From Promethearchaeota archaeon (GTDB taxonomy: Archaea > Asgardarchaeota > Odinarchaeia > Odinarchaeales > JBHLKK01): DNA of 19,276 nucleotides. A model generated the notes under the pieces. It saw only the letters and a list, made by a program, of their open reading frames with translations. It searched no databases and was not told where the DNA came from. Made by a program: the position numbers and the translations under genes. Positions 2,383 to 13,511 of the stretch are shown here, piece after piece (positions within the stretch are counted from its first letter, which is position 1; each line of letters opens with the position of its first letter). The DNA is taken from contig JBHLPL010000028.1 in NCBI GenBank assembly GCA_048939465.1, positions 1 to 19,276 of the forward strand. Direction: 5' to 3'.

Positions 2383-2638
2383 CTTTCAGCGCCCCTTCCT
2401 ACAGCCTTTATATTAAATCCCCCTTCAACATCATTAAATTGCCTGCTGATAGGGATCAGTATGTGTTTTTCGGACTCAAACATCCGCAGAATTTCCCTTG
2501 TTGTTCTGGTCGATGTATCATCCTCCTTTTGGGCATTTCGACAGACTATTATACATATAAAAAATATCGTTGATTCAGGTGACTGCAATTGTCGCATTTA
2601 GCCAAGCTATATCGCAAGAATTATCCTTAAGCATCAGA

Positions 2639-2721: not shown

Positions 2722-3252
2722 ATGGCTGAATTTAAGGACTCTGCGCCGAGATTGGTTAAACCAAAAGCTCAGCTTAAGGAGCATATAAGCAGAATGCTTG
2801 GCGGAGAACGACTCAAGGCCTGCTACTCATGTGGGGCATGTGTCGGGAACTGCCCTGTGGCCAGGATTTTGGACAGATTTAGGCCTCTGCGAATTATCCT
2901 AGAAACCAAGCGCGGATTGGAAGAAGAACTTGTGAAAGGAGAGCCTATTTGGGATTGCGCCTATTGCTTTATCTGCCAAGATGTATGCCCTCAACAGGTG
3001 AGTTTCCCAGATATTCTTTTTGCCATAAGAAATCTCGCTGCCAGAAAAGGCAACATACCTCAGGGATTCATGACCTTTTCTAGAAACGTCTACGATAGCG
3101 GACGATCCGTTCCTCTGGATGAGTTTATGCTGGAAGATAGGGAAGATTTGGGATTGCCTCAGTTAGAGAGTCCTATTCCGAAGAAAGCTCTATCTGATAT
3201 CCGGAAAATAATGAAAATCACGAACTTCAAGAAATTGATTAAACCAAAGTGA
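2722..3252 (+). CDS. hdrC: Heterodisulfide reductase subunit C (copy 1)
   Basis: CYSCGACVGNCP and IWDCAYCFICQDVCPQ (two 4Fe-4S motifs) followed by the HdrC-type AIRNLAARKG segment. Start moved from 2653 to the in-frame ATG at 2722, which has GAGGTAAG at 2713-2720. Confidence 0.92.
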   Translation: MAEFKDSAPRLVKPKAQLKEHISRMLGGERLKACYSCGACVGNCPVARILDRFRPLRIILETKRGLEEELVKGEPIWDCAYCFICQDVCPQQVSFPDILFAIRNLAARKGNIPQGFMTFSRNVYDSGRSVPLDEFMLEDREDLGLPQLESPIPKKALSDIRKIMKITNFKKLIKPK

Positions 3253-3265
3253 GGTTGATTACAGA

Positions 3266-4150
3266 TTGAGATATCTCTTCTTCCTGGGGTGTACTGCACC
3301 TACAAGAGTACAGGGTTATGAGCTTTCGACAAGAAAGGTCCTTCCGGCCTTGGGTGTAGAATTGGTGGATGAACCACTCTTCACTTGCTGTTCACCCGCT
3401 CCCATTATACCTTCAATCGATTTCTTGACAAGTCTTGCCATAACCGCGCGGAACCTTTGTATTGCTGAGGAAGCTGGATCAGATATCGTTACTCTCTGCA
3501 ATGGTTGTTATGGCAACCTGAGTACTGCGATTCATCAAATGGAACGTGAAGAAACCAGGGAGAAAGTGAACAGGATACTGGCTGAGATCGGCTATGAGTA
3601 TAAAGGGAAGGTCAAGGTTAAACATGTCACTCAAGTGCTTTTTGAAGATGTTGGTATCGAAAAGATTAAGGCGAGAGTCAAACGCCCCCTCCCACTTAGA
3701 ATTGGTGCTTATTACGGATGTCATCTAATACGACCTGAAGAAGCCTTGACTTTTGATTATTCGGAAGTCCCCACTAAACTTGATCAGATAGTGACTGCCT
3801 TGGGTGCCGAAAGCATTTGGTATGAATCTAAATTCGAATGCTGCGGGGGGACCTTAAGGGGGTTTAATGATGACATTTCTGTTGAGTTAGGACGACGAAA
3901 GCTTGTGAATCTAGATAAAGCAAATGTAGACTGTGTGGCAGTGACATGTCCGTTTTGCTTCCTGCAGTTTGATAGAGGTCAGGTTGCTATTACCGATAGG
4001 TACGGTGAAGAATACAACATCCCGATTTTCACGATAACTGAACTTATAGGTCTTGCTATGGGATATGATCCTACCGATCTGGGTATAAGACTTAAGGCGA
4101 TTGACGCAAGCAAGATTCTCGAAAGAATATTTCCCTCGGTGAGCGTATAA
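3266..4150 (+). CDS. hdrB: Heterodisulfide reductase subunit B (copy 1)
   Basis: Two CCG domains with all ten Cys and the GCH His (LGC, TCC, CNGC, YYGCH, CCGG, CPFC), plus ARN and QFDRGQ. TTG start with GAGGTTGA SD at 3251-3258. Confidence 0.94.
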   Translation: MRYLFFLGCTAPTRVQGYELSTRKVLPALGVELVDEPLFTCCSPAPIIPSIDFLTSLAITARNLCIAEEAGSDIVTLCNGCYGNLSTAIHQMEREETREKVNRILAEIGYEYKGKVKVKHVTQVLFEDVGIEKIKARVKRPLPLRIGAYYGCHLIRPEEALTFDYSEVPTKLDQIVTALGAESIWYESKFECCGGTLRGFNDDISVELGRRKLVNLDKANVDCVAVTCPFCFLQFDRGQVAITDRYGEEYNIPIFTITELIGLAMGYDPTDLGIRLKAIDASKILERIFPSVSV

Positions 4151-5035
4151 ATGTCTTGGCTCAAAACATCGAAGACTTTCACTGACACTGGTTTTCTGGT
4201 AACAGAACCAAGTTACACCTATGCAATCGAGTTAGAGTACTACAAAGAGATGTGTGCAGGTTGCGGTATGTGTATAGTTGCTTGTCCAAAGGGAGCAATT
4301 AAGATAAAAGATCAAGAGAAACTGATTCAGAAGACGACTGGTATTAATCTCATTGATATAGATGAAGAAAAATGCGTCAAATGTGGTATTTGCGCAGCAA
4401 CGTGTATTTTCAACGCGCTTAAGCTTAGACATAGAGACAATCTCGCTGAAGAAGAATACAGGATACCCGCGACAGAACTCGGGGTTTATCCAAGTTTTCA
4501 AACCACGGCGAAGGTTGAGCTGGAGAAATGTACCTTTTGCAAACTATGTGAAAAGATGTGTCCGAGAAAAGCAATTACAGTAATTCACAAAGAGAAAGTG
4601 GATATAAATTCCATTCTATGCATTGGCTGTGGTTGGTGTGAGTGGATTTGTCCTACGTCCGCCATAACGACTAGAAAATCCCTTACAGGAAGCATCAAAA
4701 TAAACCTGGAAGTCTGCAAAACTGATTGTGACAAGTGCGCCTCTGTCTGTCCAGCTGATGCCATCTACTCCAAATCTATTGCAGAATCGAAATTTGGCAA
4801 GGTCAAAACCAATGTTATTGAGAAGAAGATTCTGAAACAAGAGACTGAAAAGACGGTTCCATTGAGTGAGTTCTGTGTTTTGTGCGGGGCCTGTAAACAG
4901 GTCTGTCCAGTAGAAGAATGTATTGAAATCGAGAGGAAAAAAATCTCCGTCCCCAAACTACGCTCGGCAAAACTGTGGTCAAGAGTACAGGAGAAACTCC
5001 ATAAGGCCACTAGGGAGGCTGGGAGAGCTGAGTAA
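4151..5035 (+). CDS. Polyferredoxin with six 4Fe-4S motifs, FwdF-like
   Basis: Motifs CAGCGMCIVACP, CVKCGICAATCI, CTFCKLCEKMCP, CIGCGWCEWICP, CKTDCDKCASVCP and CVLCGACKQVCP. The linker (...GVYPSFQTTAKVELEKC) resembles FwdF. TAAATG junction with hdrB. Confidence 0.85.
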   Translation: MSWLKTSKTFTDTGFLVTEPSYTYAIELEYYKEMCAGCGMCIVACPKGAIKIKDQEKLIQKTTGINLIDIDEEKCVKCGICAATCIFNALKLRHRDNLAEEEYRIPATELGVYPSFQTTAKVELEKCTFCKLCEKMCPRKAITVIHKEKVDINSILCIGCGWCEWICPTSAITTRKSLTGSIKINLEVCKTDCDKCASVCPADAIYSKSIAESKFGKVKTNVIEKKILKQETEKTVPLSEFCVLCGACKQVCPVEECIEIERKKISVPKLRSAKLWSRVQEKLHKATREAGRAE

Positions 5036-5534
5036 ACGGAAGATTCTGGAAGTAAACGCGAAATTTCGAGAGAAGATCGCCAAACATATTAAAGAGGAGC
5101 TATTGACTGTCTGCAATCAATGCGGAACTTGCACGGGTTCATGTCCCGCAGCAAGGTTCTCCGATTCATTCAATCCCCGGAAAATCATAAGAGGCATAGT
5201 TTTAGGGTCGGATGATGAATTAGTTCGAGGGAATCCAATATGGATGTGTACAACGTGCCATTTTTGCTCTGAGAGATGTCCTCAGGGAATTGACGTTTCT
5301 GAAGGCATTATTGCATTGAGAAATCTGGCTGCTCAAGAAGGTAATGTTCCGGAAGATATCAAGAACGAAGTGGTCAATCTACTATCGGCTGGCGTTACCG
5401 TTCTGCCATCTCCCATGATTGAGAAAAGAAGAGACAAGTTAGGACTGCCCAGCCTACCTCGAGTCGATCTCGAGCAAGTACGAACTTTGCTTAGGGTCGC
5501 CGGTCTAGACAGACATCCGAAGGGGGACAAGTAA
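5028..5534 (+). CDS. hdrC: Heterodisulfide reductase subunit C (copy 2); start uncertain (CTG 5028 favoured over TTG 4923 or TTG 5103)
   Basis: CNQCGTCTGSCP and IWMCTTCHFCSERCPQGID, plus ALRNLAAQEG. The TTG at 4923 would overlap the polyferredoxin by 113 nt. GGGAGG at 5013-5018 sits 9 nt before the in-frame CTG at 5028. Confidence 0.88.
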   Translation: MSKRKILEVNAKFREKIAKHIKEELLTVCNQCGTCTGSCPAARFSDSFNPRKIIRGIVLGSDDELVRGNPIWMCTTCHFCSERCPQGIDVSEGIIALRNLAAQEGNVPEDIKNEVVNLLSAGVTVLPSPMIEKRRDKLGLPSLPRVDLEQVRTLLRVAGLDRHPKGDK

Positions 5535-6434
5535 ATGCTCAACTATGCTTTCTTTCCGGGATGCCTAATCTCTCGAAGATACCCTCAGATTGAACTTGCC
5601 ACCAGGAAAGTAATGGACAGGTTTGGTGTCAAGCTGATAAATATGAATGGAGCTAGCTGCTGCCCAGATCCTATCGGAATTAAATCAATCAATTCAAAAG
5701 CGTGGATGCTAGTTTCTGCCCGAAACCTCTGTATTGCAGAAGAGATGAAAAAAGATATTATGACAGTATGCAACGGCTGTTTTCTAACCCTCAAAACCAC
5801 GAATTTCATACTTAAGAAGAATTCAGCACTGAGACAAGAAATTAATGGATTCTTGGCCGAAGTGGACAAAGAGTTCAAAGGAATCATAAGAGTCAAACAC
5901 ATGTCAGAGATTCTTCATAAAGACCTTGGAATTAAAAGAATCAAAGAACTCATCAAACACCGGCTAAGCAACCTTGATGTTGCCGTTCACCATGGCTGTC
6001 ACCTAGTTATGCCGAATGATATGTTGGCCATTGATAACCCCGAACGGCCATATATACTTGATGAGCTTGTTGAGGTTACGGGAGCCAAAAGCGCGCAATA
6101 TCTTCACAAGAACATGTGTTGTGGTTATGGTACCTCCACAAATAGCAAGGAGACTTCTCTGGAAATAACAAAACTGAAGCTGTTTCAAATGCAGCGTGCA
6201 AGCGTTGACTGCATAACTCTGATGTGCCCCTCTTGTTTCACCCAATTTGACATGGGACAGATACAAATCAAAAGGATCTTCAAAGAATCATTTGACATAC
6301 CAGTAATTCACTACTCACAACTTCTTGGACTGGCCTTAGGCTTCCTACCCAAAGAATTAGGTACACATCTGAATTTGGTCAAAGTTGAGCCTGTCCTCGA
6401 GAAATTAGGAATGCTTGCATCAAATGGAGGTTAG
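5535..6434 (+). CDS. hdrB: Heterodisulfide reductase subunit B (copy 2)
   Basis: FFPGC, SCCP, ARN, CNGC, HHGCH, CCGYG, CPSC and QFDMGQ. TAAATG junction with hdrC copy 2. Confidence 0.94.
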   Translation: MLNYAFFPGCLISRRYPQIELATRKVMDRFGVKLINMNGASCCPDPIGIKSINSKAWMLVSARNLCIAEEMKKDIMTVCNGCFLTLKTTNFILKKNSALRQEINGFLAEVDKEFKGIIRVKHMSEILHKDLGIKRIKELIKHRLSNLDVAVHHGCHLVMPNDMLAIDNPERPYILDELVEVTGAKSAQYLHKNMCCGYGTSTNSKETSLEITKLKLFQMQRASVDCITLMCPSCFTQFDMGQIQIKRIFKESFDIPVIHYSQLLGLALGFLPKELGTHLNLVKVEPVLEKLGMLASNGG

Positions 6435-6440
6435 GCATCA

Positions 6441-7763
6441 ATGAGCAAAAGAAAACCATCAGTATTAGTAATTGGGGGGGGAATAGCTGGAATTCATTCC
6501 GCCCTGAAGCTGGCGGATCTAGGTGTTGATGTCTACCTAGTTGAAAAAGAGGCAAGTCTAGGCGGAACTGCCGCCAAACTAGGTAAAGTATTTCCTACCG
6601 ATGATTGTGGTGTATGTGTTACTGCGTCTGCTAGCCAGTTCGCCACAAGAACTGGATACAGAAGATGTCTCTATCGCACGAATTTTACTGAACTATCAAA
6701 TTTGACTATTCTAACATTAAGTAGGATTCAGAACGTATTGAAAAAGGAAGGAGTCTTCAGTGTAAGAGTAAAACAAGATCCCAGATATGTTAACGAGAGG
6801 GATTGCATTGCATGTAACCTGTGTTCTGAAATATGTCCCGTGGAGGTAACTGATGAATATTGTCTGGGCTTGACGAAAAGAAAAGCAATTTACCTGCCAT
6901 TTATTCAAGCTATACCTTACACATATTTGGTTGACTCTGAAAGCTGTACCCGATGCAATAAATGCGTGGAAGAGTGTCCCACAAACGCTATTAATCTGGA
7001 CCAGCAAGCGAGAGAGTTTACGCTTGTAGTGGACAGAATCGTAGTTGCAACGGGATTCAAGGAAATAGATCCCAGTCACATCAGCGAGTATGGTTACGGC
7101 CTATATGAAAATGTAATTACCCAGATGCAGCTGGCAAGCTTTCTAGACCCGACAGGTCCGACTGAAGGGAAGATTGTTACACCAAAAACAGGGAAAGCCG
7201 CAAAGGATGTTCTCATGATTTTATGTGTAGATTCTCGAAATAAGTCGAACTGGTATTGCTCCAGAATCTGCTGTACCTATGCCATAAAACATGCGATCCT
7301 CCTCAAGCAATCTGGAGTAAATGTAACTATATCGTATATTGATGTTCGAACCATGGGACAATACGAAGAGTATCTTGAGAAAGCTAGGAAAGAAGGAGTC
7401 AGATTTGTGCATGGCCGTGTAAGCACAGTAGAAGAAGATCCCACAGATCACAGGCTTTTGGCACAACTCGAAGATGTCGATAATGCCAAGGTCCTCGAGA
7501 TTCCGTTTGATCTCGTTGTGTTGACTCCACGTCTTGCCCCCTCAGACGGAACCACTGAGATAATCAGAATCCTCGGTTTACCAACTGAAGCTGGAGGCTT
7601 TGTAAAACCATTATCGGATCAGTTTGACTCCACCAGGACTAGCCAGAAAGGCATATTTGTATGCGGTACAGCCCAACAACCGAAAGACATACCAGAATCC
7701 GTAACTGATGCTGGTACCGTCGCAATGAACATTCTTCATTCTTTAATGAAGAATAAGGCATAA
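6441..7763 (+). CDS. hdrA: Short HdrA-like flavoprotein (FAD domain + inserted 2x4Fe-4S domain; no N-terminal domain, no C-terminal ferredoxin); QmoA-like layout
   Basis: Begins at the Rossmann motif VIGGGIAG...VYLVEK. Contains VFPTDDCGVC, CIACNLCSEICP/CTRCNKCVEECP, VVATG, LCVDSR...YCSRICCTYAIK and GIFVCGTAQQPKDIPES. GGAGGT SD at 6426-6431. Confidence 0.9.
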   Translation: MSKRKPSVLVIGGGIAGIHSALKLADLGVDVYLVEKEASLGGTAAKLGKVFPTDDCGVCVTASASQFATRTGYRRCLYRTNFTELSNLTILTLSRIQNVLKKEGVFSVRVKQDPRYVNERDCIACNLCSEICPVEVTDEYCLGLTKRKAIYLPFIQAIPYTYLVDSESCTRCNKCVEECPTNAINLDQQAREFTLVVDRIVVATGFKEIDPSHISEYGYGLYENVITQMQLASFLDPTGPTEGKIVTPKTGKAAKDVLMILCVDSRNKSNWYCSRICCTYAIKHAILLKQSGVNVTISYIDVRTMGQYEEYLEKARKEGVRFVHGRVSTVEEDPTDHRLLAQLEDVDNAKVLEIPFDLVVLTPRLAPSDGTTEIIRILGLPTEAGGFVKPLSDQFDSTRTSQKGIFVCGTAQQPKDIPESVTDAGTVAMNILHSLMKNKA

Positions 7764-7767
7764 GGGG

Positions 7768-7797
7768 GAGAAGGAGAATGAGAAGGAGAATGAGAAG
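7768..7797 (+). repeat. 12-bp tandem repeat GAGAAGGAGAAT x2 plus partial third copy (GAGAAG)
   Basis: Read directly: 7768-7779, 7780-7791 and 7792-7797. It creates two in-frame SD+ATG units (ATG 7778 and ATG 7790). Confidence 0.9.
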
Positions 7798-9922
7798 AAG
7801 CAAAGTAGCACTGTTTTTGTGCACCTGTGGAAGAACTCTATCCAAGACCATAGATTTTGAGCAGTTAGTCAACTTCTCCTCAGAGCTTGAAGATGTAGAA
7901 GTAGTTAGAGTTCATGATACCCTATGTCTGGATAAGGGACTTGACTTCTTCACAAAGACCTTAAAGGATGAAAAAATAGGTGCTGCAGTCATCGCTGCGT
8001 GCTCCCCTCAAATCTATGAAGAGAGATTTCTAAAAGCAATTCATAAATCTAAGTTGGGCACCCTCATCGATTTTGCTAACATCCGAGAACAATCAGCCTG
8101 GGTACATAGCTCCACCCCTCAGAAAGCTACAAACAAAGCCAAAGTAATGATCGCATCATCTATTGAAAAGGTAAAAGGAATGAAAGAAGAAAAAGCTGAG
8201 AAGAGAAAGGTCAATAAAAGCGCACTGATTGTTGGGGGAGGAATTGCAGGCTTAAACGCCGCCCTAGATATTGCAGGACAAGGATTTAATGTAATCATAG
8301 TTGAAAAGACCTCCAGCATCGGTGGCTTATCCAGATTGTTTGAAGAGACGGAAATCAGAGATTTAGTTAGTCAGAGTATGGATGATGTAAAGAAAAACAG
8401 GAGAATTAGGATCTTCAGTAATTCCCTCGTGAAAGATGTGAAAGGCGTTCCTGGGGCTTATGATGTAGTCATTGCCGGAACTTCTGAATCTGAGAAAGAA
8501 CCGGTTGAATTGCAAGTAGGTGCAATACTCCTGGCAACTGGTTTGCGGGAATATGACCCATCTTCAATTCCGAAACTGAAATACGGGAAACACAAGAACA
8601 TCATAACAGGTCTCCAGGTATCTCAGATGATGCACCCGGATGGGGCAACTGGTGGCAAGATAATTGTCCCCTCGACAAAGAAAAAACCCAAACGAGTGAT
8701 GTTCATCCAGTGTGTTGGCTCGCGCGACTCCCGACACAAATGGTATTGCTCAAGCATATGCTGCAATTATGCCCTCAAGCATGCCAACAGACTCAACGAA
8801 CTGGGAATAGAAACTTTTGTTAATTATGTGGATATCCGCACACCCTATCTTGATGAGAAAAGATACATTGACGCTTTGAAGAAAGGGACTATATTCCTGA
8901 AAGGAGAGGTCAAAGGCATAAGAGAAAATGCCGATGAACTCACAGTTTCCATAGATGACACTTTGACAGGGGATAAACTTGATATAAACTGCGATATGGT
9001 TGTCCTAAACCCAGCTTTGGTCCCGACAGAAGAAGCAGAAACTCTTTCCAGACTTCTAGGTATTGGTCTCGATTCTGCTGGATTCTATCAAACTGTCTAT
9101 CCCAAGGTAATTACTGCCGAAAGCAAATCTAGAGGGTTGTTCATATGTGGCTCCGCTTTCAGCCCCATGGATATACAGCAGACCCTTGTGCATGCGCATG
9201 CGGCAGCTCTGGAAGCCGTAGAATTCCTTCGAAGAAGCACAATTGAACCTCGAAAGACTATACCAGAACTTGATGAGGAGCTCTGCGACGCCTGTAGGGC
9301 TTGTGAATCAATGTGTGGTTTTAACGCTGTAAAAGTTGAGGCAGTCGAAGCTGGACGAGAAGTCGCGAAACTCAGATTGGAGAACTGTGTTGGGTGTGGT
9401 GTTTGCGCAGCCGTTTGTCCAACAAAGGCAATCCAGCTCAGGAACTATGATCAAGAAACCCTTTTTGCCCAGATCGAAACCGTTGTGAAAACGGCCTCAG
9501 ATATTGATGCAAGCGAACCAGTAATCTTGGGACTATATTGTAATGAATGCGCATACTGTAGCGCTGATATGGCTGGGAGATTGCATAAAGAATACTCCTC
9601 AAATATATATCCCATTACTGTGCCGTGTGCTGGAAGAATTTCAGTTCTTGAGATTCTGAAAGCTCTTACCGAAGGCGCCGATGGGGTGTTTATTGCAGCT
9701 TGCCCAAGCAAAAGCTGCCACTACCCCCCTGCTACAGACAGTGCTCGATTAATGATTGATTTCACAAAAGAAATCTTAGATGCACTTGGCGTTGATGAGA
9801 GAAGAGTAGAGATCTTTAATATGGTCTCGTATGACCCAATCAAATTTGCTGAATCTGCCAATCTAATGGCTGAGAGAGTTACGAAACTTGGCCCGAATCC
9901 TGTGAAGAATGCAACAGAATGA
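7778..9922 (+). CDS. hdrA: HdrA-MvhD fusion (N-terminal domain + FAD domain + C-terminal 2x4Fe-4S + MvhD 2Fe-2S domain); QmoB-like layout; start 7778 or 7790
   Basis: FLCTCG, AACSP, NIREQSAWVH, IVGGGIAG, LLATG, QCVGSR...CSSICC, CDACRACESMCG/CVGCGVCAAVCP, then MvhD-type YCNECAY, VPCAGRI, GADGVFIAACPSKSCHY, LGPNPV. Lacks the FPTxDC loop and the inserted ferredoxin domain. Confidence 0.92.
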   Translation: MRRRMRRSKVALFLCTCGRTLSKTIDFEQLVNFSSELEDVEVVRVHDTLCLDKGLDFFTKTLKDEKIGAAVIAACSPQIYEERFLKAIHKSKLGTLIDFANIREQSAWVHSSTPQKATNKAKVMIASSIEKVKGMKEEKAEKRKVNKSALIVGGGIAGLNAALDIAGQGFNVIIVEKTSSIGGLSRLFEETEIRDLVSQSMDDVKKNRRIRIFSNSLVKDVKGVPGAYDVVIAGTSESEKEPVELQVGAILLATGLREYDPSSIPKLKYGKHKNIITGLQVSQMMHPDGATGGKIIVPSTKKKPKRVMFIQCVGSRDSRHKWYCSSICCNYALKHANRLNELGIETFVNYVDIRTPYLDEKRYIDALKKGTIFLKGEVKGIRENADELTVSIDDTLTGDKLDINCDMVVLNPALVPTEEAETLSRLLGIGLDSAGFYQTVYPKVITAESKSRGLFICGSAFSPMDIQQTLVHAHAAALEAVEFLRRSTIEPRKTIPELDEELCDACRACESMCGFNAVKVEAVEAGREVAKLRLENCVGCGVCAAVCPTKAIQLRNYDQETLFAQIETVVKTASDIDASEPVILGLYCNECAYCSADMAGRLHKEYSSNIYPITVPCAGRISVLEILKALTEGADGVFIAACPSKSCHYPPATDSARLMIDFTKEILDALGVDERRVEIFNMVSYDPIKFAESANLMAERVTKLGPNPVKNATE

Positions 9923-9935
9923 GGAAGGAAAGATA

Positions 9936-10418
9936 TTGCTTACAAAAAGGGAACACCTCGTCAGATTGCTGCAGAAACTGGCAATACGGCAGCCAAAGGC
10001 TCCCGTAGTTACGCCCGAAAAACTTGAAGGGTTTATTACCATACTAGTCAAATCCACAAGATGTACGTTATGCAATAAGTGTGTGGAAATATGTCCAGAG
10101 GATGCTCTTTCTCCCCTCAAAATCTTTGATCTTGCCTCAGTTCTGAAGTCTCCCTATCCAAAAGACTTGAGAGCGAAGAACAGATTGACACTATATGAAT
10201 TATTGCAGAAATTGGCACGTGAAACCCCAAAGGGTCAAATCATCGTGCCTGAGGGGCTAGAAGGGTTCGGGGACATAGAATTCCGCCCGGAGAAATGTAC
10301 TGCTTGCGACAAGTGCAAAGAAGTGTGTCCTGAAGATGCTATTGAGGTCCTACCACAATTCGACCTTCCAAGAGCATTGGAAAACTTGGCAAAACGCCCA
10401 AAGGAGGCCGAAGATTGA
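9936..10418 (+). CDS. Ferredoxin-like protein built from two ~78-aa repeats, each with one 4Fe-4S motif; start TTG 9936 (or ATG 9909)
   Basis: CTLCNKCVEICPEDAL and CTACDKCKEVCPEDAI are 234 nt apart. GAGGAAGG SD at 9921-9928 precedes the in-frame TTG at 9936. Confidence 0.85.
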   Translation: MLTKREHLVRLLQKLAIRQPKAPVVTPEKLEGFITILVKSTRCTLCNKCVEICPEDALSPLKIFDLASVLKSPYPKDLRAKNRLTLYELLQKLARETPKGQIIVPEGLEGFGDIEFRPEKCTACDKCKEVCPEDAIEVLPQFDLPRALENLAKRPKEAED

Positions 10419-12415
10419 ACAAAAAAGTCAATAGCAAAGGCTCAAACGAAAATGCAAGAATAGGAGTTTTTGTATGCCATTGCGGTTCCAATATTGCTGG
10501 TGTAATTGACGTAGGAGATGTGGCCAAATATTCGAAGAGTCTACCTCACGTAGCTTTCGCCAAAGACTACATATTCATGTGTTCCGAAAGTGGGCAAAAG
10601 CTAATCAAGGATTCCATAGGTAAGCACGGACTCAATCGAATTGTTGTAGCAGCTTGTTCACCAAAGCTACACGGACCAACATTTAAGCGTTGCATATCTG
10701 AAGCTGGGCTGAATCCGTATTTTCTTGAGATGCCAAACATTAGAGAGCAATGTAGCTGGGCACATATGAACGAATCCAAAAAGGCTACTGAGAAGGCTAA
10801 AACGTTGATTCGTGGAGTTGCCGAGAAAGCTGCTCTGCTTGAGCCTGTTGAGAGTATGAGGGCACCTGTCACAAAAGCGGCTTTAATCATTGGGGGAGGG
10901 ATTTCTGGAATTCAGGCGGCTTTAGATTTGGCTGATGCTGGCATCAGAGTATACTTGGTTGAAAGATCCCCCTCGATCGGCGGAAACATGGCTCGACTCG
11001 AGAAGACATTTCCTACTGACGACTGCGCCATGTGCATACTCTCTCCAAAAATGAATGATGTGAGAGCCCATCCTAGCATAGAGCTTCTTTCTTACAGCGA
11101 AGTGATAGATGTTTCAGGATACATAGGAAATTTCAACGTTAGTGTCCTCAAAAAGCCAAGATTTGTTGATGCCCTGAAATGTACAGGTTGTGGAGTATGT
11201 GCTGAAGTGTGTCCTGTAAAGGTACCAGCAGAATGGGAGCTGAGAATGGGTATGAGATCGGCCGCATATATCCCGTTCCCTCAATCGGTGCCGCTTACTC
11301 ATGTCATTGATCGAGAGAAATGCATAGATTGTGGCCTGTGCGAAGTATCATGTCCGTCAGGTGCTATTGATTTTGGTCAAATGCCAGAGGAGGTCAAACT
11401 GGAGGTAGGTGTGATAATTGTAGCAACTGGTTGGCAACAGTGGGATCCATCTCCAATGAGGGAATACGGGTACGGAATCTATCCAAACGTTATTACACAA
11501 TTACAACTTGCTCAAATGCTTGAATCTGTTGGTCCGACCAATGGCAAAATAGTTCGGGCTGATGGAAAGCCCGCAAAAAGAATAACAATGATACAGTGTG
11601 TAGGCTCCAGAGACGAGAAATACAACTCATATTGCTCGAGCGTATGTTGTATGGCAGCAATCAAGAATGCGCAGCTGGTAAAACTTGAGCACGTACGCGA
11701 TGCCGAAATAACAATATGCTACATAGATATTCGGGCTTATCGGAAGGACTTTGAGGAATACTACAGTCGTTCAAGAGAATACGGCATCGATTTCATACGC
11801 GGTAATGTTTCAAAAGTCTATGAAGACCCTAATACAGGCTTGATGAGAATCCAAGTATACGACACATTGCTGGACAGACTGATAGAACTTGAGTCAGATA
11901 TTGTTGTACTCTCTACGGCAACAATTCCTTCTGAAGGAACCTCAGAATTGGCCCAAAAGCTGGGAATAGACATTGGACCCGAAGGATTCTTGAAAGAGCT
12001 ACATCCTAAACTCAAACCGGTGAACAGCAAAATAGAAGGCATTTTCATATGTGGAGCGGCGCAAGGACCAAAAGACATTCCCGATTCGATAGCTCAGGCG
12101 AGCGCGGCGGCAGCCAGGGCAAATATACCCCTCGCCAAAGGATATGTCATAATAGACCTAATGGTGGCTGACGTGAACAAAGAGCTTTGTACGGCCTGCG
12201 CCATATGCGTGGATGTATGTCCTTTTGCAGCTTTGGAGATGAATGAAGAGGAGAATGTTGCTGAAGTCAATCCGCTGAAATGCAAGGGATGTGGGACTTG
12301 CTGCGGAGCCTGTCCTACAGGAGCTATCCAACTGGCCCACTATCGCGACGATCAAATCATCGCCCAGGTAAAGGGTATATTGGCATCATCGAAGGAAGTC
12401 TCGGAGGAAATCTAG
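10415..12415 (+). CDS. hdrA: Full-length heterodisulfide reductase subunit A
   Basis: GVFVCHCG, MCS, AACSP, NIREQCSW, IIGGGISG, KTFPTDDCAMCILSPKM, inserted ferredoxin (CTGCGVCAEVCP/CIDCGLCEVSCP), QCVGSR...CSSVCC and C-terminal CTACAICVDVCP/CKGCGTCCGACP. TTG start with AGGAGG SD. Confidence 0.96.
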   Translation: MNKKVNSKGSNENARIGVFVCHCGSNIAGVIDVGDVAKYSKSLPHVAFAKDYIFMCSESGQKLIKDSIGKHGLNRIVVAACSPKLHGPTFKRCISEAGLNPYFLEMPNIREQCSWAHMNESKKATEKAKTLIRGVAEKAALLEPVESMRAPVTKAALIIGGGISGIQAALDLADAGIRVYLVERSPSIGGNMARLEKTFPTDDCAMCILSPKMNDVRAHPSIELLSYSEVIDVSGYIGNFNVSVLKKPRFVDALKCTGCGVCAEVCPVKVPAEWELRMGMRSAAYIPFPQSVPLTHVIDREKCIDCGLCEVSCPSGAIDFGQMPEEVKLEVGVIIVATGWQQWDPSPMREYGYGIYPNVITQLQLAQMLESVGPTNGKIVRADGKPAKRITMIQCVGSRDEKYNSYCSSVCCMAAIKNAQLVKLEHVRDAEITICYIDIRAYRKDFEEYYSRSREYGIDFIRGNVSKVYEDPNTGLMRIQVYDTLLDRLIELESDIVVLSTATIPSEGTSELAQKLGIDIGPEGFLKELHPKLKPVNSKIEGIFICGAAQGPKDIPDSIAQASAAAARANIPLAKGYVIIDLMVADVNKELCTACAICVDVCPFAALEMNEEENVAEVNPLKCKGCGTCCGACPTGAIQLAHYRDDQIIAQVKGILASSKEVSEEI

Positions 12416-12844
12416 GTGAGTGAAGAAAAAGAGTTCGAACCGATAATCCTAGCTTTCTGCTGCAATGAGTGCTCATACGCTGCCGCGGATCTGGCTGGTA
12501 CAAGTCGTCTCCAATATCCGACAAACGTCCGAATAATTTTGATACCATGCACAGGAAGAATCGATCTGACCTATATTTTTGAGTCATTTGTCAACGGTGC
12601 TGATGGCGTTCTCGTAGAAGGATGCCTAAAGGACCAATGCCATTATGTCGACGGGAATTATAGAGCTGAAAGACGTGTCGAATTTGCAAAAAGGATACTC
12701 GACGAGATCGGTATAGGTAATGAAAGGCTGGAAATGCATTTCATCTCGGCTGGTATGCCTGTGAAGTTCGCCGAGGTAGCCAGGGAATTTGTCAGAAAAA
12801 TCAAAAAACTAGGTCCAAATCCCCTTAAATTGCGGAGCAGGTAA
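12416..12844 (+). CDS. mvhD: MvhD-type 2Fe-2S subunit (methyl-viologen-reducing hydrogenase delta)
   Basis: FCCNECSYAAAD, IPCTGRID, GADGVLVEGCLKDQCHYVDGN and LGPNP. GTG start abuts the hdrA TAG. GGAGG at 12403-12407. Confidence 0.95.
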   Translation: MSEEKEFEPIILAFCCNECSYAAADLAGTSRLQYPTNVRIILIPCTGRIDLTYIFESFVNGADGVLVEGCLKDQCHYVDGNYRAERRVEFAKRILDEIGIGNERLEMHFISAGMPVKFAEVAREFVRKIKKLGPNPLKLRSR

Positions 12845-13004
12845 CAATTCTAACAAGAAAAAAAAGCTAAGCGGTGTCATTTTCTTCATCGAATTAATTC
12901 TCAGTGCAGGTCAGTCTCAGCATCTGTACTTAGAGATAGGCTAGAAGCCTTAAGAATTTTTTGCTAATACGAACGGAGCGCTTCTGGGGCCTCTTCCGTC
13001 GGGC

Positions 13005-13114
13005 GCTTTTGCCAAACTACTGTTAATCTCCTTTTCTAAGATAGAGATAACATTAATTTATCAGAATGGTAATATTCCTAAGTGTTGATGAGGTCGATTC
13101 ACTTTGGCAAAAGC
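13005..13114. repeat. Perfect 12-bp inverted repeat GCTTTTGCCAAA (13005-13016) / TTTGGCAAAAGC (13103-13114) with an 86-bp spacer
   Basis: Read directly. The right arm contains the TTG start of ORF 13104. Confidence 0.75.
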
Positions 13115-13511
13115 TGAGAATCTCAATAAACTCATGAGAAAGATTGTATATGCCCTTTACTCCGACGAAGTCCACTCGTTCTACCGTGAATCTTCTGCAA
13201 ACCCTCAAATTAGATATTCTCCTACAGATCTCTTCGCCGACATACAAGATTCTAATGGACTTCCTGAGGCGGTGAACCATCTTATACACTTGGGTTTTTT
13301 GAAAGGTGAAAAGCTTCAAGATGGAAGAACGGTTTACTCGCTATCCGGCGAAAAGATGGAGCAGGTTAGGGATTTTTGGTTTTCTGAGTTGAGAAACATC
13401 ATGTCAGAGAAACTTCAGGTTGTTATAGCTAAGTTGTTTGCAAAGAAGATCGCACTCGGATGGGATGAATCTGAGGCTCAGGAAGCAGCTACCCCATCAT
13501 TTAAAGAGTAG
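13104..13511 (+). CDS. Hypothetical protein, possibly winged-helix fold
   Basis: 135-aa ORF with TTG start and GAGGTCGA SD. LPEAVNHLIHLGFLKGEKLQDGRTVYSLS resembles a recognition helix plus beta-wing. No family recognised. Confidence 0.6.
   Translation: MAKAENLNKLMRKIVYALYSDEVHSFYRESSANPQIRYSPTDLFADIQDSNGLPEAVNHLIHLGFLKGEKLQDGRTVYSLSGEKMEQVRDFWFSELRNIMSEKLQVVIAKLFAKKIALGWDESEAQEAATPSFKE

Follow-up and report, generated by a model that had tools for sequence, protein, structure and literature searches.

A ten-gene Hdr cluster of an Asgard archaeon encodes a complementary HdrA pair with an associated type of ferredoxin and may specify two bifurcating modules

The window considered here, a stretch of 19,276 nucleotides that makes up the entire contig JBHLPL010000028.1 (C56) of a Promethearchaeota archaeon of the order Odinarchaeales (GenBank assembly GCA_048939465.1), carries on its plus strand, at positions 2722-12844, ten genes of the heterodisulfide reductase (Hdr) type in the order hdrC1-hdrB1-polyferredoxin-hdrC2-hdrB2-hdrA-S-hdrA-M::MvhD-Fd-hdrA-L-mvhD. 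Three of them encode paralogous flavoproteins, HdrA-S, HdrA-M and HdrA-L (S, M and L below), of which M is fused to an MvhD domain, and one encodes a ferredoxin of 169 amino acids (aa), referred to as Fd. Judged by their motifs, S and M have undergone reciprocal losses, with every element of one bifurcation circuit apparently present exactly once between them and the missing elements being those of the reciprocal circuit. The interpretation favored here, on balance, is that the cluster specifies two soluble Hdr-type modules, made together, which would bifurcate (or confurcate) electrons, act on a disulfide that is probably not CoM-S-S-CoB, the heterodisulfide of coenzymes M (CoM) and B (CoB), and be fed with mid-potential electrons in trans.

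The genome (1.96 Mb in 152 contigs; 91% complete, 3.8% contamination) belongs to an Asgard archaeon, as is confirmed by the relatives of the operon proteins. The ten genes, matched to protein families by open reading frame (ORF) and family-model searches, all run in the same direction and form the tightly coupled unit that the initial annotation had described: no gap between genes is wider than 14 nt and overlaps occur at three junctions, leaving no intergenic room for an internal promoter, and the strings TAAATG (4148-4153 and 5532-5537) and TAGGTG (12413-12418) stand exactly where they had been read. A recount by motif gives 31 Fe-S clusters (two in each HdrC and each HdrB, six in the polyferredoxin, three in S, five in M, two in Fd, six in L, and one in MvhD) and three flavin adenine dinucleotide (FAD) sites of the GxGxxG type, in place of the estimate of about 30 and three. 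Both HdrB copies do keep all ten CCG cysteines, arranged as two C-X(31-39)-CC-X(35-36)-C-X2-C motifs apiece, as required for two non-cubane clusters, and the proposal of two distinct HdrB active sites together with three flavin subunits is supported; genes of the mvhAG, fdhAB, fwd, mcr, apr, and qmoC types are indeed lacking from the window. Independent assemblies from mangrove and sediment contain overlapping pieces that together account for the whole stretch, mostly at 99% identity or more and with none spanning it alone, which makes it unlikely that the ten-gene order is an assembly artefact.

Complementary HdrA Paralogues

L can be aligned end to end with the HdrA of Methanothermococcus (5ODC_A) and keeps the FPTDDCxxC motif, the second cysteine of which is Cys197. 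A complete four-domain HdrA with FAD, six clusters, and Cys197 is found in L only, S and M each being without two elements. S contains the cluster of the thioredoxin reductase (TrxR)-like domain (CxxSR...CSxxCC), an inserted two-cluster ferredoxin domain, and the FPTDDCxxC motif, and has neither an N-terminal domain nor a C-terminal ferredoxin domain. M holds the N-terminal domain (four cysteines), FAD, the TrxR-domain cluster, the C-terminal ferredoxin domain, and the fused MvhD, and has neither a cysteine at position 194 or 197 nor the inserted ferredoxin domain. The Cys194/Cys197 pair, C56 and C59 of S, is invariant in 28 S-type relatives and missing from all 14 M-type relatives that were compared. 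In the M protein of a Baldrarchaeia relative the inserted domain is still present, and in the M proteins of families f31 and f19 the motif of the TrxR-domain cluster (HA4) has also been lost, yet two hdrCB pairs remain at those loci, so that the second pair there cannot be wired through M.

Among the NCBIfam models, HdrA2 fits each of the three HdrAs best, every score being below the cut-off. The three operon paralogues share 35-42% identity, for which reason a recent tandem duplication was rejected and the copies are considered to be old. The HdrA tree places the M-type proteins on one split (Shimodaira-Hasegawa-like approximate likelihood ratio test, 99) and the Asgard S-type proteins in one clade (94), with L clustering among methanogen and bacterial HdrAs (96).

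Complementarity of this kind has been described for tandem or fused HdrAs from anaerobic methanotrophs (ANME archaea), where the N-terminal domain and Cys197 are distributed over two copies, heterodimers were proposed, and the roles of both elements were discussed (PMC9012536). The adjacent M (N-terminal domain, no Cys197) and S (Cys197, no N-terminal domain) show the same division as in the scheme of Chadwick and co-workers, and since the split matches the published complementarity exactly, it supports a heterodimeric circuit. According to cryogenic electron microscopy (cryo-EM), electrons in one branch pass from FAD' via HA4' to HdrB, and in the other branch from FAD' via the shuttle cluster HA3 of the partner protomer to HA5' and HA6' and further to the polyferredoxin (PMC13580544). 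Both routes could be traced through the S/M pair. HA3 is presumably housed in the N-terminal domain, a placement that follows in part from the text of Chadwick et al. 2022.

The Hdr-Associated Ferredoxin

Fd, which had at first been taken for a generic ferredoxin, belongs instead to a distinct family built from a duplicated unit. Each of its two repeats comprises a helix, a PxxxxxVPxxLxGFG stretch, and a single CxxCxxCxxxC motif; in an alignment of 17 members none of the eight cysteines varies. The structure of Fd is predicted with a pLDDT of 83, and Foldseek and Atlas searches with it returned only generic 2x[4Fe-4S] ferredoxin look-alikes. The protein is present in 56 of the 399 other genomes of the phylum, spread over eight families, and no homologue was seen at any of the 80 listed non-specific HdrA loci from other phyla. 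When representative sequences were searched exhaustively with the Fd alignment, only a few dozen clusters (at 50% identity) matched its Fd part, forms of 735-750 aa among them; the fused MvhD columns contaminate this profile, and about 35 of the top 150 matches cover the Fd part. A protein-homologue search brought up one near-identical protein only, which reflects the limit of its word index. In this sampling the Fd family is confined to Asgard genomes.

The fd gene lies next to M in most loci sampled and is divergently placed in f28 and at one further locus (L141). In f31 it is fused to MvhD, which argues that Fd contacts an MvhD. A complex prediction that combined Fd and two [4Fe-4S] clusters with both the free MvhD and the one fused to M scored 0.40, and a control in which the M domain had been replaced scored 0.45, values that speak neither for binding nor against it.

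Conservation of the Gene Set in Asgard Archaea

A synteny comparison, which the initial annotation had proposed as a check, shows the whole ten-gene unit to be conserved in other Asgard lineages. The identical order occurs on a 122-kb Joint Genome Institute (JGI) metagenome contig (L008), with 46-71% identity per protein, and in a Baldrarchaeia genome (L009 and L010; L121 of G005). The closest homologues of S, of 430-450 aa and 45-52% identity, come from sources labeled Baldrarchaeia, Helarchaeota, and Promethearchaeota. A profile search of genome contigs with the S-type alignment recovered the ten-gene order at none of the 80 listed loci, the matches being generic HdrAs from many phyla.

Comparison of 20 Fd loci with 10-kb flanks revealed a number of related arrangements. 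In many genera of f31 an eight-gene cluster, hdrC-hdrB-S-M-[Fd fused to MvhD]-L-hdrC-hdrB, consists of the same parts without the polyferredoxin, whereas f19 shows S-M-Fd-hdrC-hdrB-L-mvhD followed by another hdrC-hdrB pair. The order is S-M-Fd-hdrC-hdrB in f18 (where Fd has about 750 aa) and in a Helarchaeota genome, and L::MvhD-S-M-Fd in f17; f28 and f32 have S-M with Fd nearby and no L. The conserved core is thus S, M, and Fd, usually accompanied by one hdrCB pair. The set is, by these comparisons and the trees, old within Asgard archaea and is also patchy. At three f31 loci (L129, L133, and L137) the L-type HdrA has about 1134-1138 aa and is apparently a fused double HdrA, in place of one of 677 aa.

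These arrangements bear on the question of whether the operon encodes one functional system or two. It may be proposed that the products are two physically separate, co-transcribed enzymes, a QmoAB/HdrCB-like one made up of S, M, Fd, and HdrC2B2 and an ordinary one made up of L, MvhD, and HdrC1B1, each with its own partners and substrates and with no exchange of electrons between them. In f28, in f32, and in one genome each of Helarchaeota and Promethearchaeota, the S-M-Fd unit does occur, with or without one hdrCB pair, with no L in its 10-kb surroundings; hdrA-mvhD pairs of the L type are often met by themselves, and the paralogues are old and divergent. On the other hand, an L-type hdrA is found in the S/M/Fd locus or within a few kb of it at about 16 of about 22 loci (f5, f17, f18, f19, f31, the window, and L008), a tally that overstates the support, as kin are not independent, and that is therefore suggestive at most; moreover, the gene order has been kept intact between lineages whose housekeeping neighbors are only 43-55% identical. 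Full separation of the two enzymes is judged rather unlikely.

HdrAs also occur as tandem pairs outside the Asgard archaea, in Hydrothermarchaeales and Bathyarchaeia (L043 and L019), the short member having 433-460 aa and the long one 684-712 aa. These pairs fall within the canonical HdrA clade, a position that points to more than one origin of such pairs; the Asgard S and M clades lie apart from those sampled.

Proposed Model of Electron Transfer

In the favored reading, that of two modules made together, module 1 would be asymmetric, with the S/M heterodimer keeping exactly one working circuit. M would serve as the input arm by means of its fused MvhD, its C-terminal ferredoxin domain, and its N-terminal domain with the shuttle cluster; S would contribute Cys197, which would complete the shuttle cluster of M, as well as FAD and the cluster leading toward HdrC2-HdrB2, and the inserted ferredoxin domain of S would be the low-potential outlet. 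Fd would be a dedicated subunit of this module. Module 2 would consist of the canonical HdrA-L and MvhD with HdrC1-HdrB1, and the FwdF-like polyferredoxin would be its likely low-potential wire. HdrC2B2 is assigned to S/M/Fd because these genes are adjacent in every arrangement, and HdrC1B1 to L by exclusion and on account of the L-hdrC-hdrB order in f31. Both HdrB sites would reduce or oxidize a disulfide, and the two MvhD ports would take up mid-potential electrons in trans, the likeliest source being F420H2 via an unlinked FrhB-type protein. What we infer from these data is the heterodimer, the way the subunits pair, the donor, the direction in which the reaction runs, and the union of the modules.

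The initial annotation had envisaged a single large complex. The tight genetic unit stands, the physical union of its products is only suggested, and the evidence fits two modules. That the two modules are physically joined, via MvhD-Fd-MvhD, is conceivable and at the same time somewhat doubtful. A further variant would dispense with a donor altogether: an MvhD-Fd-MvhD wire would connect the input ports of the two modules, and one of the modules would run backwards, confurcating the electrons of a dithiol and of reduced ferredoxin into the flavin of the other, which in turn would bifurcate to a second disulfide and, via the polyferredoxin, to an acceptor of very low potential, for instance Fwd or CODH. 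Such a thiol-driven, Asgard-specific "double bifurcation" is considered a distant prospect.

It has to be noted that several observations weigh against the two-module interpretation. The cluster was not found in two genomes of the same genus (78-82% complete), and near-complete genomes of the same order have no HdrA at all; being missing from such near relatives, it is not essential to the lineage. The S/M heterodimer follows from sequence logic and analogy. The M protein of the window keeps its own TrxR-domain cluster motif and may thus also carry an HdrBC, in which case the pairing of HdrB1C1 with L would be wrong, and the HdrB tree does not settle the pairing of HdrB with HdrA across families. 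In several families (L124 and L125) a free MvhD accompanies the S/M/Fd set with no L gene nearby, so that the Fd::MvhD fusion does not prove a link of Fd to L. Finally, an frhB gene adjoins the cluster in only one or two of about 22 loci examined.

Genomic Context: Donors, Acceptors, and Substrate

The statement that no donor enzyme is encoded holds for the window, but in the closest relative, L008, a gene of the FrhB/FpoF type begins 3 nt past mvhD, and an orthologue of it (50% identical) is present on contig C84 of this genome, unlinked to the operon. The surroundings of that orthologue (L005, 10729-14780), SRP19-Gar1-TFIIB-FrhB-RNase HII, are collinear with the flanks of the L008 cluster at 43-85% identity. 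On C84 the TFIIB-FrhB spacing is 536 nt, and it is at this place that L008 holds the whole hdr block together with metFV; the place is thus a clean site either of loss from C84, the block having moved away in this lineage, or of insertion in the lineage of L008.

Neither a hydrogenase of the Mvh type nor an FdhAB donor was identified in the genome, in which a weak NiFe hydrogenase match on C71 and a second molybdopterin ORF on C104 are without class assignment. The matches to NiFe hydrogenases comprise a four-gene sulfhydrogenase-like enzyme on C16, which is the only soluble hydrogenase, two further matches on C109, and the weak one on C71, and none of them adjoins an MvhD gene. Among potential partners the genome holds an archaeal CO dehydrogenase/acetyl-CoA synthase (CODH/ACS), FwdB, MetF, two CofE, two TusA, and two GcvH.

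Further Hdr genes occur elsewhere in the genome. On C152 (L003, 293-8401) another hdrC-hdrB pair is located about 1 kb upstream of the CODH/ACS genes cdhA-cdhB-cdhC-cdhD on the same strand, with a DUF166 gene on the opposite strand in between. C16 (L002, 20692-26200) encodes, divergently from the genes of FwdB and a small Fe-S protein, an HdrA::MvhD of 790 aa and a polyferredoxin that the contig end truncates after more than 415 aa; these two resemble the HdrA2-polyferredoxin pair of Methanosarcina, placed here beside a formylmethanofuran dehydrogenase subunit, and are a closer look-alike of it than the operon genes are. In a Helarchaeota genome (GCA_013375455.1; L142, 14755-20836) genes for an HdrD-like protein, two lipoate-protein ligases, and three LipS-like radical S-adenosylmethionine (SAM) proteins are situated directly beside an S-M-Fd-hdrC-hdrB unit on the other strand. 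This neighborhood, encountered at that locus alone among those examined, is a hint at a lipoylated protein as a possible substrate of HdrB.

An operation in the manner of the Moorella MetFV-HdrABC-MvhD complex has also to be considered, in which MetF would reduce methylene-tetrahydromethanopterin (or the folate) within the Wood-Ljungdahl pathway, coupled to ferredoxin. In L008 metV-metF lie directly upstream of the ten genes in divergent orientation, the present genome holds a 56%-identical MetF together with the archaeal CODH/ACS and FwdB, and the HdrA of the Moorella complex has been described as a fused complementary pair (PMC9012536). Here, however, metF is unlinked (on C60, between a family B DNA polymerase gene and an unknown ORF), MetV was not found in the 91% complete genome, metVF are missing from the other 20 loci checked, and the role of HdrB in such complexes is itself not established. 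This alternative is improbable.

The operon might also specify a genuine CoB-CoM heterodisulfide reductase for some cryptic metabolism of methane or alkanes, or else a Qmo-type link to sulfate reduction. Such roles would be in line with HdrB2 exceeding the NCBI equivalog cut-off for CoB-CoM HdrB, with the match of L to methanogen HdrA at 4e-244, and with the presumed likeness of S and M to QmoA and QmoB. The search of the 91% complete genome for mcrA, ComA, and DsrC gave no match (no search was aimed at an alternative CoM route or at CoB synthesis), and the window holds no membrane subunit of the qmoC type; AprB likewise had no match in the genome, a search in which the control was also silent. 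Both of these possibilities are exceedingly improbable, and the two-module reading with a different disulfide is retained.

Comparison with Known Hdr Systems

Among the closest known systems are the MvhAGD-HdrABC, FdhAB-MvhD-HdrABC, and Fmd supercomplexes of methanogens (PDB 5ODC, 7BKB, 8RVU, and 9SW2; PMC13580544). The operon shares with them all the cofactor motifs in HdrA-L, MvhD, HdrB, and HdrC and a cluster-encoded polyferredoxin, a type of protein (FmdF or MvhB) that wires HdrA to a partner enzyme in the methanogen complexes. It differs from them in having no hydrogenase or formate dehydrogenase module, in containing two additional degenerate HdrAs, a second HdrBC, and a second MvhD, and in that most of its subunits fall below the NCBIfam equivalog cut-offs: HdrB2 alone passes, and the best HdrA reaches 868 as compared with 1100.

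With the complementary pairs of ANME (HdrA5/6, 12/13, and 3/4, PMC9012536; "type II" HdrA, PMC12054007) the operon has in common an adjacent copy that possesses Cys197 and is without the N-terminal domain, and clusters with an additional type I HdrA, for which two bifurcation events were proposed, have been published as well (PMC9012536; PMC12054007). Unlike in those pairs, the Asgard M is devoid of the inserted ferredoxin domain and S of the C-terminal one, the Asgard set travels with Fd and shows no tie to FdhAB-like genes, and its host does not metabolize methane.

The QmoABC complex of sulfate reducers and the qmoAB-hdrCB variant of Gram-positive sulfate reducers combine a short HdrA-like flavoprotein, a longer flavoprotein of the HdrA::MvhD type, and HdrCB. 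The architecture of S and M probably resembles that of QmoA and QmoB. The operon differs from QmoABC in having no QmoC; its HdrCs cover no more of the qmoC model than the N-terminal Fe-S part, with scores far under the cut-off.

The MetFV-HdrABC-MvhD complex of Moorella thermoacetica and Sporomusa (PMC9430772; PMC9012536) is similar in its complementary double HdrA, in its occurrence in a non-methanogen with the Wood-Ljungdahl pathway, and in the adjoining metVF, although the last of these is seen in the relative L008; here the metF gene stands apart from the operon, which in addition comprises two HdrBC, three HdrAs, and Fd. The F420H2/ferredoxin-dependent HdrA2-polyferredoxin-HdrB2C2 of Methanosarcina acetivorans offers as parallels an HdrA::MvhD fusion, a polyferredoxin, and a candidate F420 link, and the difference lies in the HdrA2 model, the cut-off of which none of the operon HdrAs attains.

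Hdr modules in non-methanogens, complementary HdrA pairs, clusters with an extra HdrA, and the speculation on two bifurcations are thus already known. In papers on Asgard archaea Hdr figures solely in the form of "HdrABC plus group 3c hydrogenase," and the talk there is still of an "unidentified heterodisulfide" (PMC11291895, PMC10667645). No paper on the present parts list or on Fd was found in the literature searched.

Features of the Operon and Its Flanks

The coordinates of the operon genes and of the putative signals around them are compiled in Table 1. The hdrC1 start codon ATG 2722 is preceded by a GAGGT 8 nt upstream, and the same ORF also opens at ATG 2653; hdrC1 relatives have 151-178 aa. 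The start of hdrC2 is less clear, as no in-frame ATG, GTG, or TTG follows the stop codon of the polyferredoxin gene (TAA 5033-5035). Candidate starts are ATT 5043 and CTG 5046, the sole canonical in-frame start being TTG 4923, with an overlap of 113 nt with the polyferredoxin gene. At position 5037 the sequence has a C where three other assemblies have an A, which alters no start codon. A fusion of the polyferredoxin with HdrC2 by a frameshift or a tRNA-type micro-intron was rejected, since relatives hold two separate genes, with hdrC2 starting 14 nt past the polyferredoxin stop. Orthologues of hdrB1 are found in L008 and at the Baldrarchaeia locus, and in the HdrB tree the HdrB1 clade and the HdrB2 clade are each common to the window, L008, and Baldrarchaeia; the tree does not resolve the orthology of the two with the "first" and "last" pairs of f31.

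Table 1. Genes and putative signals of the hdr operon, in positions of the window
Feature	Position	Strand	Basis and remarks
Candidate promoter, TATA-like A/T-rich stretch	2550..2570	+	Upstream of the operon; putative, read by eye
hdrC1, 176 aa, 2 x [4Fe-4S]	2722..3252	+	Fer4_8; TIGR03290 114 bits, cut-off 160
hdrB1, 294 aa, two CCG domains, 10 motif Cys	3266..4150	+	CCG 2.4e-29; TIGR03288 321 bits, cut-off 345
Polyferredoxin, 294 aa, six CxxCxxCxxxC-type motifs, FwdF/MvhB-like	4151..5035	+	FwdF model 8e-46, below cut-off
hdrC2, ~163 aa, 2 x [4Fe-4S]	~5043..5534	+	Fer4_8; TIGR03290 118 bits, cut-off 160; start uncertain
hdrB2, 299 aa, two CCG domains, 10 motif Cys	5535..6434	+	CCG 1e-31; TIGR03288 365.5 bits, cut-off 345.15
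hdrA-S, 440 aa: FAD, Cys194/Cys197 pair, TrxR-domain cluster, inserted ferredoxin domain	6441..7763	+	Matches only residues 146-560 of 5ODC_A
hdrA-M::MvhD, 714 aa	7778..9922	+	Structure alignment, family models, tree
Fd, 169 aa, two [4Fe-4S]-type motifs	9909..10418	+	Family search, alignment, structure model
hdrA-L, 666 aa, complete four-domain HdrA with Cys197	10415..12415	+	5ODC_A 4e-244, residues 12-656 on 2-650
mvhD, 142 aa, [2Fe-2S] adaptor	12416..12844	+	FlpD 1.1e-50
Probable operon end, A-run, then T-rich tracts	12845..12900	+	3' of mvhD; putative

The flanking genes of the window are non-redox, encoding a UvrB C-terminus, a P-loop kinase, an AlaX-like protein, an Lhr helicase, a DeoC-type aldolase, a zinc-dependent alcohol dehydrogenase (Zn-ADH), and an endonuclease dU. 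The approximately 500 nt 5' of the operon (2144-2652) contain only an unconvincing minus-strand ORF of 110 codons without a family match, and 3' of it there is a 135-aa ORF (13104-13511) without a Pfam match. Rfam and tRNA scans of the window, these two regions included, found no RNA.

Implications

Few energy genes of non-methanogenic archaea are as conserved as those for Hdr, which in soil Asgard archaea also rank among the most transcribed energy genes, and the locus provides a concrete handle on what Hdr does outside methanogens. The Asgard parts list that travels together comprises S, M, Fd, L, two MvhD, and two HdrBC, and two of its three flavoproteins, S and M, would make sense only as one asymmetric unit. 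Testable predictions follow as to which subunits co-purify, which cysteine completes each cluster, and which HdrBC belongs to each flavoprotein, along with a few donors and acceptors to be assayed. Cultured Asgard strains would be worth checking for the eight-gene variant, given its wide distribution in one large family of Asgard archaea.

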